Source: Escherichia coli (lineage in GTDB: Bacteria > Pseudomonadota > Gammaproteobacteria > Enterobacterales > Enterobacteriaceae). From it: DNA of 64,000 nt. Made by a program: the position numbers and the translations under genes. Within the stretch, counting starts at the first letter, position 1, and every line of letters begins with the position of its first letter. The notes under the pieces are model-generated. The model saw nothing but the letters and a program-made list of their open reading frames with translations, made no database searches and had not been told where the DNA came from. Shown piece by piece: positions 29,386 to 62,189 of this stretch. Where the stretch lies: assembly GCF_029227855.1 (NCBI RefSeq), contig NZ_CP074356.1. One strand, 5' to 3'.

Positions 29386-30375
29386 TTAGCCGCCAATGTA
29401 CGATAAGTTTTGCGTAATACCGGTGTTATTTTGATGCAGGAAATGGGTCTGTTTCTTCTCCCGCAGCGCCGCTGAAATACGCGCTTCCAGCGCCTGTTGC
29501 TGGGTATCGTCTTCCAGCAGATCGCGCAGGTTAACGCCGCCTTCACCAAACAGGCAGAGATGGAGTTTACCAATGGAGGAAACGCGCAGGCGGTTGCAAG
29601 TGGCGCAGAAGTCTTTTTCATACGGCATGATAAGGCCAATCTCTCCGGCGTAATCCGGATGACAAAAGACTTGCGCGGGACCGTCGCTGCGTTGACGTAA
29701 TTGGTGGATCCAGCCGCGACGCAGTAGCTCGTCACGCAGAACCTGACCAGAGATGTGATGCTTACGGAAGAGCTCGCTGCCCTCACCCGTTTCCATCAAT
29801 TCGATGAAACGCAGCTGGATAGGGCGATGCTGGATCCAGTTCAGAAAGGTGTCGAGCTGATGATGATTAACATCACGCATCAGCACGGTATTGACTTTGA
29901 CCTTCTCAAAACCGGCCTCAAATGCAGCATCGATCCCTGCCATGACCTGGTTGAATTTATCCTGCCCGGTAATGGCATGAAACTGGCGAGCGTCAAGGCT
30001 ATCAACGCTGACGTTGATGCCAGTAAGTCCCGCATCGCGCCAGTTCGCCACATCGCGTTCCAGACGGTAACCATTGGTGGTGACCGCAATCTGGCGGATA
30101 GCGTCGTTTTCCCGCACAGCGGCGATGATATCGGTAAAGTCGCGGCGTAAAGACGGCTCACCACCTGTCAGACGGACTTTTTCGGTGCCCAGACTGGCAA
30201 AGGCGCGCGTAATCCGGCGAATTTCATCGACGGTAAGAAAGCCTTTATTGGTGACGCCGCTCGGTTTGTAGCCATCCGGCAGGCAGTAGGTGCAACGAAA
30301 GTTACACACATCAGTAATCGACAGGCGCAAGTAGTAAAACTTACGCGCAAATGCATCAGTCAGTTGTGAAGCCAT
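29386..30375 (-). CDS. moaA: GTP 3',8-cyclase (radical SAM)
   Basis: Internal ATG at 30375 gives 329 aa ([31 protein letters not shown]) with the CxxxCxxC radical-SAM motif. Confidence 0.93.
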
Positions 30376-30379
30376 GTAC

Positions 30380-30520
30380 ACCTTTCCAGATACGGGAGGC
30401 GAAGTCATTTCTTTCTTCGCCCTGGTGGCAATCTTTACGAGCATTGTCACGGCCAAAGCACCGTATCAGTTGACCCAGGTGCAGAGGCTAGAGTGTTTAG
30501 TGGTTAAGCCGATACTAGCG
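30380..30520 (-). promoter_or_regulatory. Molybdenum-cofactor (Moco) riboswitch candidate in the moaA leader
   Basis: Long structured 5' UTR upstream of moaA; the E. coli moaABCDE leader is the described Moco RNA motif; transcript ends …GCGAAGAAAGAAAUGACUUCGCCUCCCGUAUCUGG before the start; boundaries approximate. Confidence 0.5.
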
Positions 30521-59506: not shown

Positions 59507-60259
59507 ATGGCTGTAACTAAGCTGGTTCTGGTTCGTCATGGCGAAAGTCAGTGGAACAAAGAAAACCGTTTCACCGGTTGGTACGACGTGGATCTGTCTG
59601 AGAAAGGCGTAAGCGAAGCAAAAGCAGCAGGTAAGCTGCTGAAAGAGGAAGGTTACAGCTTTGACTTTGCTTACACCTCTGTGCTGAAACGCGCTATTCA
59701 TACCCTGTGGAATGTGCTGGACGAACTGGATCAGGCATGGCTGCCCGTTGAGAAATCCTGGAAACTGAACGAACGTCACTACGGTGCGTTGCAGGGTCTG
59801 AACAAAGCGGAAACCGCTGAAAAGTATGGCGACGAGCAGGTGAAACAATGGCGTCGTGGTTTTGCGGTGACTCCGCCGGAACTGACTAAAGATGATGAGC
59901 GTTATCCGGGTCACGATCCCCGTTACGCGAAACTGAGCGAGAAAGAACTGCCGCTAACGGAAAGCCTGGCGCTGACCATTGACCGCGTGATCCCTTACTG
60001 GAATGAAACTATTCTACCGCGTATGAAGAGCGGTGAGCGCGTCATCATCGCTGCACACGGTAACTCGTTACGTGCGCTGGTGAAATATCTTGATAACATG
60101 AGCGAAGAAGAGATTCTTGAGCTGAATATCCCGACTGGCGTGCCGCTGGTTTATGAGTTTGACGAGAACTTCAAACCGCTGAAACGCTATTATCTGGGTA
60201 ATGCTGACGAGATCGCGGCGAAAGCAGCGGCCGTTGCAAACCAGGGTAAAGCGAAGTAA
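59507..60259 (+). CDS. gpmA: 2,3-bisphosphoglycerate-dependent phosphoglycerate mutase
   Basis: Internal ATG at 59507 gives 250 aa ([17 protein letters not shown] with the RHG catalytic motif). Confidence 0.97.
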
Positions 60260-60285
60260 ACGTCATTCGTTTAAAAAATAAATAT

Positions 60286-60311
60286 CCTCCGGCATAGCCG
60301 GAGGTTTTTCA
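60286..60311 (+). terminator. Intrinsic terminator after gpmA
   Basis: cctccggc-ata-gccggagg hairpin followed by TTTTTC, about 27 nt after the gpmA stop. Confidence 0.55.
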
Positions 60312-61026
60312 AATGCGCCTATAAGGCTCTCTTACCAGCCGCGCCCTAACAGGCGCACACGATCTGACATTTGCATCCAACTTCGTTACTTACGGCCCGT
60401 AAACGGGCTGCCCGGATAGGGAATCGATAACTGCTCTCCCATTTTATCCTCTTCAAGCTGGTGCTTTATGTAATCCTGTATCTTCGCCGTGTTCTTACCC
60501 ACTGTATCGACGTAGTACCCTCTGCACCAGAACTCCCTGTTCCTGTATTTGAATTTCAAATCACCAAACTGCTCGTAAAGCATCAGACTGCTTTTCCCTT
60601 TCAGATATCCCATAAACCCGGATACGCTCATTTTGGGCGGGATCTCCACAAGCATATGGATATGATCTGCACAGCATTCAGCTTCCAGAATCCGTACGCT
60701 TTTCCACTCACACAGCTTTCTCAAAATACTGCCTATTGCTCTACGCTTCTCTCTGTAGAACACCTGTCTTCGGTATTTTGGCGCAAAAACTATGTGATAT
60801 TTACAGTTCCATCGGGTGTGCGCTAAGCTCTTTTCGTTCCCCATTGGGACCCCCTTTTGATTTCTTGTTTGACACTTGCAGTTGCCAGACCGCAAAGTGT
60901 TTTAACAAATCAAAAGGGGTTTTAATAACTGGCTCAAAGCTGAAAGCTTTCCGGAACCCCCAGCCTAGCTGGGGGTTTTCTGTGCACAATGAGAAAGCCG
61001 ACTGCAAGTGAGTCGGCTTTTTTGTT
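60311..61026 (-). mobile_element. IS200-type insertion sequence (IS200/IS605 family), about 0.7 kb, termini approximate
   Basis: Contains a 152-aa Y1 HuH transposase and, upstream of it, the two IS200 hallmarks: an RBS-sequestering stem-loop (60852-60920) and a terminator-like hairpin (60955-60977); the gpmA-aroG spacer is about 0.7 kb longer than two native terminators/REPs would need. Confidence 0.7.
60386..60844 (-). CDS. tnpA: IS200 transposase TnpA (Y1 HuH transposase)
   Basis: Internal ATG at 60844 gives 152 aa MGNEKSLAHTRWNCKYHIVFAPKYRRQVFY… with the HxH motif (ADHIHMLVEIPP) and a catalytic Tyr region; near-identical to the IS200 TnpA as remembered. Confidence 0.92.
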   Translation of the reverse strand: MGNEKSLAHTRWNCKYHIVFAPKYRRQVFYREKRRAIGSILRKLCEWKSVRILEAECCADHIHMLVEIPPKMSVSGFMGYLKGKSSLMLYEQFGDLKFKYRNREFWCRGYYVDTVGKNTAKIQDYIKHQLEEDKMGEQLSIPYPGSPFTGRK

Positions 61027-61052
61027 TGTCGTTGCTAACAATGGAGCACATT

Positions 61053-61126
61053 GCCTGATGCGACGCTGCGCGTCTTGTCAGGGCTACGGTGATTCATCGG
61101 ATACGCCACTCTGACGGCGCATCCGA
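61053..61126. repeat. REP-like palindromic units downstream of aroG
   Basis: gcctgatgcgacgctgcgcgtcttgtcagggctac and cggatacgccactctgacggcgcatccg resemble REP consensus units. Confidence 0.5.
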
Positions 61127-61136
61127 CAATTAAACC

Positions 61137-62189
61137 TTACCCGCGACGCGCTTTTACTGCATTCGCCAGTTGACGTAACAGAGCATCGGTATCTTCCCAG
61201 CCGATGCAGGCATCAGTGATGCTCTTGCCATAGGCCAGCGGTTCCCCACTCTCGAGGCTCTGATTGCCTTCCACCAGATGGCTTTCCACCATCACGCCAA
61301 TAATGGCCTTTTCGCCACCGGCAATCTGCTGGCAAACGTCAGCACAAACATCCATCTGCTTTTTAAATTGTTTTGACGAGTTAGCATGGCTGAAATCGAT
61401 CATCACCTGTGCTGGCAGGCCTGCTTTGTTCAGCCCTTCTTTCACTTCAGCAACGTGCTTCGCGCTGTAGTTAGGCTCTTTACCGCCGCGCAGAATGATA
61501 TGGCAATCGCCGTTACCGCTGGTATTCACAATCGCCGAATGCCCCCATTTCGTTACGGACAGGAAGCAGTGCGGCGCACCGGCGGCATTAATGGCATCGA
61601 TAGCCACTTTAATCGTACCATCAGTGCCATTTTTGAAGCCTACCGGGCAAGAAAGCCCTGATGCCAGTTCGCGGTGCACCTGCGATTCCGTAGTACGTGC
61701 GCCAATTGCGCCCCAGCTCATCAGGTCAGCGAGATACTGCGGGGTGATCATATCGAGAAATTCACCCGCTGCTGGCAAACCGCTGTCGTTAATATCAAGC
61801 AGCAATTTACGGGCAATACGCAGACCGTCGTTGATCTGGAAGCTGTTATCCATATGCGGATCATTAATCAGCCCTTTCCAGCCCACAGTGGTACGCGGCT
61901 TTTCAAAATAGACGCGCATCACGATTTCCAGCTCATCTTGCAGCTCTTCACGCAGCGTCAGCAAGCGAGTGGCATACTCTTTAGCCGCGACAGGATCATG
62001 AATTGAGCACGGACCAATCACCACCAACAGGCGATCATCATTACCTTTCAGGATCTTATGGATCTCTTTTCGGGCATGGGCGACCGTATTCGCGGCATTT
62101 TCAGTAGCGGGGAATTTTTCCAGCAATGCGACAGGAGGAAGTAACTCTTTGATTTCTTTGATGCGTAAATCGTCGTTCTGATAATTCAT
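61137..62189 (-). CDS. aroG: Phe-sensitive 3-deoxy-7-phosphoheptulonate (DAHP) synthase
   Basis: 350-aa ORF starting MNYQNDDLRIKEIKELLPP; matches AroG. Confidence 0.97.
   Translation of the reverse strand: MNYQNDDLRIKEIKELLPPVALLEKFPATENAANTVAHARKEIHKILKGNDDRLLVVIGPCSIHDPVAAKEYATRLLTLREELQDELEIVMRVYFEKPRTTVGWKGLINDPHMDNSFQINDGLRIARKLLLDINDSGLPAAGEFLDMITPQYLADLMSWGAIGARTTESQVHRELASGLSCPVGFKNGTDGTIKVAIDAINAAGAPHCFLSVTKWGHSAIVNTSGNGDCHIILRGGKEPNYSAKHVAEVKEGLNKAGLPAQVMIDFSHANSSKQFKKQMDVCADVCQQIAGGEKAIIGVMVESHLVEGNQSLESGEPLAYGKSITDACIGWEDTDALLRQLANAVKARRG

Follow-up and report, generated by a model that had tools for sequence, protein, structure and literature searches.

Introduction

The experimentally studied relative of the element reported here is IS200 of Salmonella enterica (Beuzon 1999; Ellis 2015, 2017; Trussler 2024), in which tnpA is transcribed from approximately nt 40 (PMC4513863). 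Its expression is repressed independently by an interior stem-loop, by the antisense RNA art200 and by Hfq, as determined by toeprinting, lacZ fusions and mating-out assays (Ellis 2015, PMC4513863). Mutations in the lower stem relieve the repression of tnpA translation, and Salmonella TnpA transposes in E. coli once translation is de-repressed, with a Y125F substitution as the catalytically dead control (Ellis 2015, PMC4513863). The antisense RNA, STnc490/art200, extends from nt 153/154 to approximately nt 64 (Sittka 2008, PMC2515195; Ellis 2015, PMC4513863). It is about 90 nt long, its promoter has a 'good -35, almost unrecognizable -10', and it is expressed in Salmonella, Y. pestis and E. 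coli carrying a plasmid-borne Salmonella element (PMC4513863). The hairpin at the left end is cited from Beuzon 1999 as an experimentally supported bidirectional terminator (Ellis 2015, PMC4513863; Sittka 2008, PMC2515195). In Salmonella, invF is repressed by two small RNAs, tnpA-110 and tnpA-90, which influence over 70 genes, and deletion of the IS200 copies there alters invasion and growth (PMC5435999); a 2024 preprint proposed that such sRNA domestication of IS200 is possibly widespread in enterics.

IS1541 of Yersinia pestis, Y. pseudotuberculosis and Y. enterocolitica is ~88% identical to the element studied here and has the same hairpins, lower stem and right end; it differs in the upper stem and, in IS1541C of Y. 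enterocolitica, also in the left-end hairpin, where C:G has become U:A through a compensated change. It is likewise found directly after a hairpin and T-run, and its copy number is far higher, with at least ~70 loci in one Y. pestis genome. IS608 (ISHp608) and ISDra2 encode homologous Y1 HUH TnpA proteins and have in common with our element subterminal hairpins at both ends, the absence of terminal inverted repeats and of target duplication, and a right-end hairpin ~9-10 nt from the tip. Unlike these two, our element lacks tnpB, has perfect rather than imperfect palindromes as hairpins, and seems to target a T-run following a hairpin instead of a defined TTAC or TTGAT. The left-end hairpin of IS608 lies 19 nt from the end, compared with 11-13 nt here. 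Terminal hairpins of the IS200/IS605 family were at one time suspected of being terminators; that they take part in the mechanism of transposition is now established (PMC7290912).

Here we examine a 64,000-nt stretch of an E. coli genome, referred to as the window, to which all positions below refer. With high confidence, the segment at 60277-60988 belongs to IS200C, the isoform of IS200 in E. coli, and is an intact copy with the published silencing hairpins and a recent gain or loss at its site. The name follows RefSeq annotation usage, for example for WP_000526135.1 and for the copies in CFT073. The locus represents known biology and reveals nothing new about the regulation of IS200.

The Element, Its Insertion Site and Its Transposase

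Comparison with the empty site of E. coli JNEC-KY178 delimited a complete element of 712 bp on the minus strand (60277-60988, IS nt 1 at 60988). The occupied and empty sites differ by exactly 712 bp, and this precise insertion relative to a 99.98%-identical genome, together with an intact TnpA, bears out the original prediction that the element is complete. The junctions with host DNA have a 1-2 nt A/T ambiguity and no target-site duplication, the run of five A/T being explained without one. The tips read TGTGCAC... and ...TATTTATT, with no terminal inverted repeats. Among copies at other loci the element forms a conserved block, with a right tip that is invariant to ...ATATTTATT and variable beyond it. 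A single Y1 transposase ORF, subterminal hairpins at both ends and the lack of tnpB place the element in the IS200 group of the IS200/IS605 family, and its length of 712 bp leaves no room for a second gene.

Copies that match all 712 bp exactly occur in CFT073, JNEC-KY178 and at least 10 other strains. A C-to-T change at 60896 (IS nt 93), where six sampled copies have C, was considered as private to the window copy; it was ruled out by the 100% identity over 712 bp with CFT073 and many other strains. The position is a bulged nucleotide, and the energy of the stem (−32.1 kcal/mol) is unaffected.

The IS200 copy used to represent Salmonella enterica (L133) was drawn from a phage sequence collection. 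It is ~91.5% identical to the window element overall and has the same layout and coordinates, with a hairpin at nt 12-34, a transcription start at ~40, the interior repeat at 69-138, the ATG at 145 and the art200 start at 153/154. Aligning the hairpins was the comparison by which their intactness could have been refuted, and no difference was seen in the left-end hairpin or anywhere in the lower stem, the paired anti-Shine-Dalgarno and Shine-Dalgarno segments included; the right-end hairpin and the inferred art200 promoter hexamers are likewise identical. There are 5 differences in the upper stem, the first ~10 nt differ (TGTGCACAG in the window copy, TGTCTATGG in Salmonella), and the length of 712 bp compares with the 707-710 bp quoted for IS200.

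The element is inserted between gpmA and the aroG terminator, within the terminator T-run on the aroG side and in the same orientation as aroG. The host hairpin that serves as a bidirectional terminator for gpmA and aroG (AAAGCCGACT...AGTCGGCTTT, 60994-61020) lies outside the element and is also found where the site is empty, in K-12, NY1601 and JNEC-KY178. IS200C copies elsewhere in E. coli are the same element, and the site occupied in the window is unusual.

The tnpA gene (60386-60844, minus strand) encodes a Y1 (HUH) transposase of 152 aa (Pfam PF01797 Y1_Tnp, E = 3.8e-38). As expected from the original reading of tnpA as free of frameshifts, the ORF is uninterrupted from an ATG at 60844 (IS nt 145 in the published map) to 60386. 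The HUH motif is H61-I-H63 and the catalytic tyrosine is Y125. The protein is identical at 152/152 positions to RefSeq IS200C WP_000526135.1 and at 143/152 (94%) to Salmonella IS200 TnpA. It also matches ISHp608 TnpA (2a6m, E = 3.9e-19), with the HUH (DHIH) and tyrosine positions aligned, and ISDra2 TnpA (E = 1.9e-16).

Predicted Repression of tnpA

The interior stem-loop of the 5′UTR spans 70 nt of the minus strand (60851-60920, IS nt 69-138), with a lower stem formed by CCCCUUUUGAUUU and AAAUCAAAAGGGG and a predicted energy of −32.1 kcal/mol. Its repeat arms (60919-60904 and 60866-60851) are 16 nt long and 94% complementary. Folding of the 171-nt minus-strand region, a check proposed with the original prediction, gave −65.3 kcal/mol (z = −4.57), and 0/200 shuffled sequences were as stable. 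The minimum-energy structure of this region also contained long-range pairing between the host flank and early tnpA codons, which was set aside given the start of the tnpA transcript at nt 40.

The Shine-Dalgarno sequence AAGGGGGU (60849-60856, minus strand) is identical to that quoted for the Salmonella element (Ellis 2015, PMC4513863), and six of its eight bases fall within the 3′ arm of the interior stem. On a transcript beginning at the published start site, the predicted unpaired probabilities along its eight positions were 0.006, 0.005, 0.005, 0.005, 0.005, 0.009, 0.744 and 0.546, so that the AAGGGG core lies at 0.005-0.009. In the predicted fold the Shine-Dalgarno sequence is thus buried by the 3′ arm, and the proposal that the stem-loop sequesters the ribosome-binding site holds, with unpaired probabilities of ~0.005. 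The arms had been described as flanking the start region, which is not the case: both lie upstream of the ATG at 60844, the 3′ arm covering AAGGGGGU. Both stem-loops, as had been proposed, are intact, and their positions coincide with nt 12-34 and nt 69-138 of the published map (Ellis 2015, PMC4513863).

A third, small hairpin (AAAGCUUUCAGCUUU, 60936-60950, minus strand, IS nt 39-53) is located at the published tnpA start (~nt 40, corresponding to 60949). It has 6 bp and a predicted energy of −3.0 kcal/mol, falls within the Rfam STnc490 consensus structure, and is paired in 100% of cells across 29 sequences. Across 29 elements from more than 15 genera, the lower stem of the interior stem-loop does not vary. 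Testing 29 non-redundant left ends for covariation gave essentially no support for the stems, with 27/42 pairs invariant and only 2/42 changing on both sides. Conservation of the left end could be attributed to any of the overlapping functions, namely TnpA binding, the promoter, art200 or mRNA structure.

By identity with the Salmonella element, tnpA would be transcribed weakly from ~nt 40 (60949) and its translation would be blocked in three independent ways. Read-in transcription from aroG would be halted first at the aroG terminator and then at the left-end hairpin. From this identity and from the thermodynamic prediction we infer that the window copy is translationally silenced. A sigma-70 consensus scan called no promoter, which for tnpA fits the 'weak, undefined' promoter of the literature and adds nothing further.

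art200 and 5′UTR-Derived Small RNAs

Besides the stem-loops, the opposite strand appears to carry an intact art200 gene, a putative additional repressor of tnpA that the original prediction had omitted. The candidate gene (60800-60926, plus strand) has a −35 hexamer TTTACA at 60800-60805, an 18-nt spacer and a −10 hexamer TAAGCT at 60824-60829; these hexamers were assigned in the present analysis, guided by the text of PMC4513863. Predicted starts at 60835/60836 (IS nt 154/153) are opposite tnpA codons 3-4. The candidate RNA, complementary to the 5′UTR, would form a long stem-loop followed by UUUUAAU and end at ~60923-60926, and its fold (−35.5 kcal/mol, z = −5.7) was matched in stability by 0/200 shuffles. 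The left-end hairpin, followed by TTTTCT on the plus strand, was considered as a terminator for art200; it was ruled out since art200 extends from nt 153/154 to ~64 (Ellis 2015, PMC4513863) and ends at its own stem and UUUU.

Rfam RF01405 (STnc490, equivalent to art200) gave a full-length match (1-124) at 60977-60854, scoring 144.6 bits where the gathering score is 56 (E = 4.6e-31). The Rfam model covers the tnpA-sense strand (nt 12-135), whereas the RNA in the literature is antisense, and the match therefore identifies the locus but says nothing of the strand or termini of the sRNA. The warranted annotation is a complete IS200C with tnpA, an art200 antisense RNA gene and a 5′UTR repressor stem-loop; labels such as orphan sRNA or decayed element are unsuitable. 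The 5′UTR had also been put forward as a reported source of a small RNA, correctly so, given tnpA-110 and tnpA-90 in Salmonella (PMC5435999).

Insertion-Site Preference and the End Hairpins

We compared 116 insertion sites from more than 15 enterobacterial genera. All 116 are co-oriented with, and located directly after, a host hairpin and T-run. In the T-rich flank logo T occupies −3 in 116/116 sites, −2 in 103, −4 in 94 and +1 in 114; position −1 is variable, and the T-run leaves the exact point of cleavage ambiguous. This terminator-adjacent preference was considered as a possible discovery and set aside, since terminator-like sequences upstream of ISs had already been described in a 2025-26 preprint, IS200/IS605 giving the strongest signal.

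The left-end hairpin (AACCCCCAGC-TAG-GCTGGGGGTT, 60955-60977, minus strand, IS nt 12-34) has a 10-bp stem that is 100% complementary and includes 7 G:C pairs. Its predicted energy is −18.0 kcal/mol as RNA and −11.7 as ssDNA (z = −3.9, 0/200 shuffles as good). It had been identified as the left-end terminator, a claim that stands with regard to the position and the perfect stem; however, on the tnpA strand the hairpin is followed by UUCCGGAA and not by a U-tract, and it lies upstream of the tnpA start site. A consensus terminator scan called it on neither strand. With the stem counted as 8 bp, the tail on the opposite strand is UUUUCUGU.

The right end (60277-60309, minus strand) consists of GAAAAA, a hairpin CCTCCGGC-TAT-GCCGGAGG (60304-60286) and the terminal ATATTTATT (60285-60277). 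It was invariant in all elements sampled and is terminator-like on both strands in the consensus scan; as ssDNA the hairpin folds at −10.0 (z = −5.0), with 0/200 shuffles as stable. Set side by side, the left hairpin is GAAAA followed by CCCCCAGC-TAG-GCTGGGGG and the right is GAAAAA followed by CCTCCGGC-TAT-GCCGGAGG, both invariant across elements. Each thus comprises GAAAA, an 8-bp GC stem and a 3-nt loop, and the two ends differ by two compensated pairs. Owing to this close likeness and to the missing U-tract on the tnpA strand, the left-end hairpin probably doubles as a recognition hairpin for TnpA; the right-end hairpin, by analogy with characterized family members, would be a TnpA recognition hairpin as well. 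As in IS608/ISDra2, a TnpA dimer would bind both end hairpins as ssDNA for 'peel-and-paste' transposition. A further inverted repeat close to the right end (TGCGCCTATAAGG and CCTAACAGGCGCA, 60314-60357, minus strand, 13 nt, 85%) lies downstream of the tnpA stop and is kept in Salmonella with one loop-side change.

These features raise the question of whether the left-end hairpin acts at this locus mainly in DNA or in RNA. There is a serious case, if one that falls a little short of an even call, that it is primarily a DNA element which TnpA, as in IS608, recognizes when the top strand is single-stranded, with a secondary or negligible role as a terminator. The shared and invariant design of the two hairpins, their stable folding as ssDNA, the homology of TnpA to ISHp608 TnpA, the absence of a U-tract on the tnpA strand and of any call in the consensus scan all point in this direction, as does the mechanistic role since established for such hairpins (PMC7290912). 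The hairpin would also be outside the tnpA mRNA, because it is upstream of the start site at nt 40. Furthermore, the host hairpin and T-run directly upstream at all 116 sites would make an internal read-in terminator largely redundant. Against a primarily DNA-level role stands the experimental bidirectional termination for which Ellis 2015 and Sittka 2008 cite Beuzon 1999, and one role does not preclude the other.

We give essentially no credence to the idea that the hairpins of IS200C are chance inverted repeats without function. Short inverted repeats are frequent in general, which is all that speaks for it, but in every test 0/200 shuffles folded as well (z from −3.9 to −5.7), the Rfam match is strong (E = 4.6e-31), the hairpins are invariant across more than 15 genera, and those of the Salmonella element have been probed experimentally (PMC4513863).

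Recent Mobility

The closest genome to the window, JNEC-KY178, differs by 8 SNPs in 48.5 kb and has an empty site. Its flanks are 100% identical to those of the window over 1,344 nt on one side and 2,250 nt to 3.0 kb on the other, and it carries a 100% identical IS200C copy at 531,927, with 24 matching places on that chromosome. Sequence comparison thus indicates that the window copy was very recently gained, or precisely lost from its sister strain JNEC-KY178. The element had been described as potentially mobile, which proves to be an understatement given this empty site and the identical copy elsewhere in a genome only 8 SNPs per 48.5 kb away. Repression is leaky on evolutionary time scales. 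The two genomes make up a clean natural before-and-after pair, with a single exact insertion of 712 bp and, in the sister genome, a donor copy identical to it, and they illustrate that the 'dormant' IS200 still moves in E. coli, to its typical type of site.

A presence/absence polymorphism of this kind could in principle arise by homologous recombination and not by transposition, through import of an occupied or empty allele, and the window copy could then be old and immobile. E. coli recombines often. Among 5,426 complete genomes, six have the gpmA-aroG site occupied, with IS200C at exactly the same position, and occupied alleles therefore circulate and could be imported. However, the occupied-site genomes differ from the window at 4 positions in 389 nt of flank and at 6 in the 712 nt of the IS, which leaves none of them a plausible donor, whereas the flanks of the window are identical to those of JNEC-KY178 and its IS is 100% identical to the paralogous copy in that genome. 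We consider recombination a quite improbable source of the difference.

The mobility of the window copy also bears on whether IS200C could be a domesticated sRNA locus, its left end kept for host regulation by a 5′tnpA sRNA and/or art200 and its transposase vestigial. The regulation of invF and more than 70 genes by tnpA-110/-90 in Salmonella (PMC5435999), the spread across enterics suggested by the 2024 preprint and the extreme conservation of the left end across genera would fit such a role. However, the transposase ORF is intact and identical in many copies, IS200C is numerous in some genomes (up to 35 places in one) and its copy number varies, and the presence or absence of this copy between 99.98%-identical genomes argues for recent transposition activity and not for a vestigial transposase. 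The regulatory targets, invF and SPI-1, are specific to Salmonella; E. coli lacks invF and has no known target of its own. Domestication therefore seems unlikely here, and a mobile, repressed IS200C remains the preferred reading.

A more tentative proposal, plausible by analogy with IS608 but one we would hesitate to back, combines this mobility with the insertion-site preference. IS200C may be active at present in this lineage despite its triple repression, through de novo insertion or precise excision within ~1.6e-4 substitutions per site, and the GAAAA 5′ of both hairpins may guide insertion in the manner of IS608, pairing with the terminator T-tract in ssDNA and so dictating the target habit. 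The left-end hairpin would then be foremost a transposition element, with host terminators borrowed for insulation.

Insertion at this site also has a local consequence for the neighboring gene. gpmA is separated from its native terminator by IS200C, the right-end hairpin of which substitutes, and 3′-end formation of gpmA could be slightly altered as a result.

Extent and Insertion Site of IS200C

A single minus-strand ORF (60844-60386) lies between aroG (61137-62189) and gpmA (plus strand, ending at 60259), and its 152 aa product matches Pfam Y1_Tnp (PF01797, E = 3.8e-38). The ends of the element carrying it, IS200C (60277-60988), were placed by alignment with empty gpmA-aroG sites (K-12, NY1601) and an occupied one (OW967178), by alignment with copies from four other loci, and by the right end ...GGAGGATATTTATT, which stayed constant in all elements examined before giving way to variable flank. 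The best evidence is a comparison with the sister genome JNEC-KY178, where the site is empty: its flanks match the window at 100% identity for 1,344 and 2,250 nt, leaving a difference of exactly 712 bp. The plus-strand sequence is CGTTTAAAAATGAGAAAGCC at the empty site and CGTTT-A6-TAAATATCC...CTGTGCAC-AA-TGAG at the occupied one. A target duplication is not needed to explain the insertion, and the junctions retain 1-2 nt of ambiguity inside the A/T run. Numbered from the left end (nt 1 = 60988, nt 712 = 60277), the left-end hairpin falls at nt 12-34 (60977-60955), a long inverted repeat at nt 69-138 (60920-60851) and the tnpA ATG at nt 145 (60844), the same positions that Ellis et al. (2015, PMC4513863) give for Salmonella IS200.

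IS200C now separates gpmA from the bidirectional terminator common to gpmA and aroG (60994-61020). The right-end hairpin of the element (60286-60304), followed by TTTTTC on the plus strand, was called terminator-like and lies 27 nt past the gpmA stop; it probably now acts as the gpmA terminator. Between the aroG stop and the aroG terminator there is also a REP-like palindromic sequence (61023-61130), which resembles Rfam naRNA4 weakly, below threshold (33.1 bits vs 59.5), and has a 7-nt indel plus several substitutions relative to K-12.

Intactness and Mobility

The transposase is identical to the RefSeq IS200C protein WP_000526135.1 (152/152) and shares 143/152 residues with a Salmonella IS200 TnpA. 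It carries H61-I-H63 and Y125, the residue changed in the catalytically dead Y125F control (Ellis et al., 2015, PMC4513863), and it matches solved TnpA structures from Sulfolobus elements, ISHp608 (2a6m, 3.9e-19) and ISDra2, in alignments that pair the HUH and Tyr residues. CFT073, MRSN346647, JNEC-KY178 and others have copies with 100% identity over all 712 bp. The hairpins, proposed to be undisrupted relative to functional copies, proved so on comparison with the IS200 copy of Salmonella enterica subsp. houtenae. The two elements are 91.5% identical overall and agree at every base of the left-end hairpin, the Shine-Dalgarno (SD) sequence, the lower stem in full with its anti-SD/SD pairing, the right-end hairpin and the putative art200 promoter hexamers; among the compared structures only the upper stem differs. 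The window copy is a textbook IS200 copy, and its biology is already known; the original reading of the element holds, with the refinements described here.

The T at 60896 (IS nt 93), a bulged nucleotide, is unlike several sampled copies, and the stem-loop energy stays at -32.1 kcal/mol with it. A private mutation was considered and rejected, as the T is a common variant found among the 100%-identical copies. Disrupted elements, contrasting with the window copy, were seen in Kluyvera genomosp. 3 (L089-L093), where homopolymer indels of 1 nt, from either decay or sequencing error, affect the two hairpins and the vicinity of the start codon, and in Pluralibacter (L014) and Y. pestis (L046/L060), where the left end is cut off inside the interior stem. 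Separately, a 136-nt segment that shares only 75.7% identity with the left end of IS200C occurs near iss on the E. coli IncF plasmid NZ_CP083479.1 (L010:901-1036) and again on several IncF plasmids. It keeps hairpin-like and stem-like parts without tnpA behind them, and may represent either the remnant of a left end or a separate small element.

The gpmA-aroG site is occupied in only 6 of 5,426 complete E. coli genomes. JNEC-KY178, the nearest relative of the window (8 SNPs in 48.5 kb), has the site empty and carries a 100% identical IS200C at 531,927, with 24 matching places in its chromosome. None of the six genomes with an occupied site is a likely donor by recombination, since in all of them both the IS and its flanks differ from those of the window. 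Most simply, the element either inserted recently in the lineage of the window or was precisely excised from JNEC-KY178, and both events require TnpA activity; "potentially mobile," as the element had been described, was if anything too cautious. JNEC-KY178, a clinical isolate from Japan, is the single close relative of this lineage among the 5,426 genomes (NZ_AP045174.1, 99.98% identity over window 14729-64000), the next-best genomes being at most 98.3% identical over ybhC-ybhJ-ybhI.

Structures Upstream of tnpA

Both inverted repeats proposed upstream of tnpA are real, rightly placed and far beyond chance. The left-end hairpin (AACCCCCAGC-TAG-GCTGGGGGTT, 60977-60955) is a perfect 10 bp stem, and the second repeat is long and interrupted, with arms at 60919-60904 and 60866-60851. 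The predicted folding energy of 171 nt of the minus strand is -65.3 kcal/mol (z = -4.57; 0/200 dinucleotide shuffles as good), and Rfam RF01405 (STnc490) matches at full length on the tnpA-sense strand (60977-60854, nt 12-135; 144.6 bits vs a gathering score of 56). In a transcript modeled from the published start site (about nt 40 = 60949), AAGGGG of the SD AAGGGGGU (60856-60849) has a predicted unpaired probability of 0.005-0.009, and the A of the AUG is open. In Salmonella IS200, the stem-loop, the ~90-nt antisense RNA art200 (STnc490) and Hfq each independently block 30S binding, and transposition rises when these blocks are relieved (Ellis et al., 2015, PMC4513863). By its identity with the Salmonella element, the window copy would be silenced likewise.

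Among 29 non-redundant left ends (E. coli, Salmonella, Yersinia, Citrobacter, Kluyvera, Kosakonia, Erwinia, Serratia, Pectobacterium and other genera), 94.7% of cells in the pair count were paired. Since no variation occurs at 27 of the 42 pairs, and changes on both sides at just two, covariation speaks neither for nor against the structures; what supports them is their thermodynamic stability, together with published structure probing of an almost identical RNA.

A putative art200 gene is present on the plus strand. By our own hexamer assignment, read from the sequence, a -35 TTTACA (60800-60805) and a weak -10 TAAGCT (60824-60829) are separated by an 18-nt spacer and precede starts at 60835/60836 (IS nt 154/153), in agreement with the published account, in which the -35 is good and the -10 barely recognizable. 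The predicted RNA folds into a long stem-loop with UUUUAAU after it (-35.5 kcal/mol, z -5.7). We know of no E. coli target of a tnpA-derived sRNA. The 5'UTR as a reported sRNA source is borne out by work on Salmonella tnpA-110 and tnpA-90, which repress invF (PMC5435999; 2024 preprint). STnc490/art200 itself is antisense and runs from nt 153/154 to about nt 64 (Sittka et al., 2008; Ellis et al., 2015, PMC4513863). Because the literature has an antisense RNA with different ends, the RF01405 match gives the locus, not the strand or ends of the sRNA, and the strand and extent of the model may not be those of the real sRNA. Elsewhere in the window, Rfam placed a molybdenum cofactor riboswitch (RF01055, 102.9 bits) upstream of moaA (30363-30507, minus strand), an ordinary instance annotated identically in JNEC-KY178.

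Terminal Hairpins

The left-end hairpin had also been interpreted as a terminator against read-in transcription. Several features temper this view: the hairpin lies upstream of the tnpA start site, no U-tract follows it on the tnpA strand (tail UUCCGGAA), and a consensus terminator scan called it on neither strand while calling the right-end hairpin on both. For its reported bidirectional terminator activity, Ellis et al. (2015, PMC4513863) and Sittka et al. (2008) both cite Beuzon et al. (1999). The two ends share a design that was invariant in all elements sampled, GAAAA[CCCCCAGC-TAG-GCTGGGGG] on the left (60955-60982) and GAAAAA[CCTCCGGC-TAT-GCCGGAGG]ATATTTATT on the right (60277-60309), and each hairpin gave a stable computed fold as ssDNA. 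IS608 and ISDra2 have a homologous TnpA, and by this analogy the transposase very probably binds these two structures as its subterminal hairpins. According to one paper (PMC7290912), that role in transposition has replaced earlier terminator speculation. We therefore regard the left-end hairpin as dual-purpose, with a DNA-level role by analogy. The common design points to IS608-type recognition through a hairpin and a guide, here A-rich and matched to a T-run target.

In Y. pestis NCTC5923 (L019 2625/3335, L021 12569/13279, L035-L036), head-to-tail IS1541 pairs are spaced by 710 nt, and the right end ...ATATTTATT runs straight into the left end (T)GTGCC; this junction looks like the RE-LE junction of an IS608-type excised circular intermediate.

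Insertion after Host Terminators

At 116 distinct IS200/IS1541-group insertion sites (window 60989-61030, L001-L011 and L013-L133), the left end always adjoins a T-run, and on the tnpA strand this run follows a strong, GC-rich hairpin. Position -3 is T in 116/116, and the 40 nt upstream of the left ends fold at a mean of -16.9 kcal/mol vs -6.8 for random 40-mers (Mann-Whitney p = 4e-58). The elements therefore sit just after intrinsic terminators, in the same orientation. Such insertion is not new, as a 2025-26 preprint reports a statistical association between IS and terminator-like sequences, strongest in IS200/IS605. Pairing of the A-rich guide with the T-tract would, speculatively, explain this preference. 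The host hairpin before the window copy is the aroG terminator (61020-60994).
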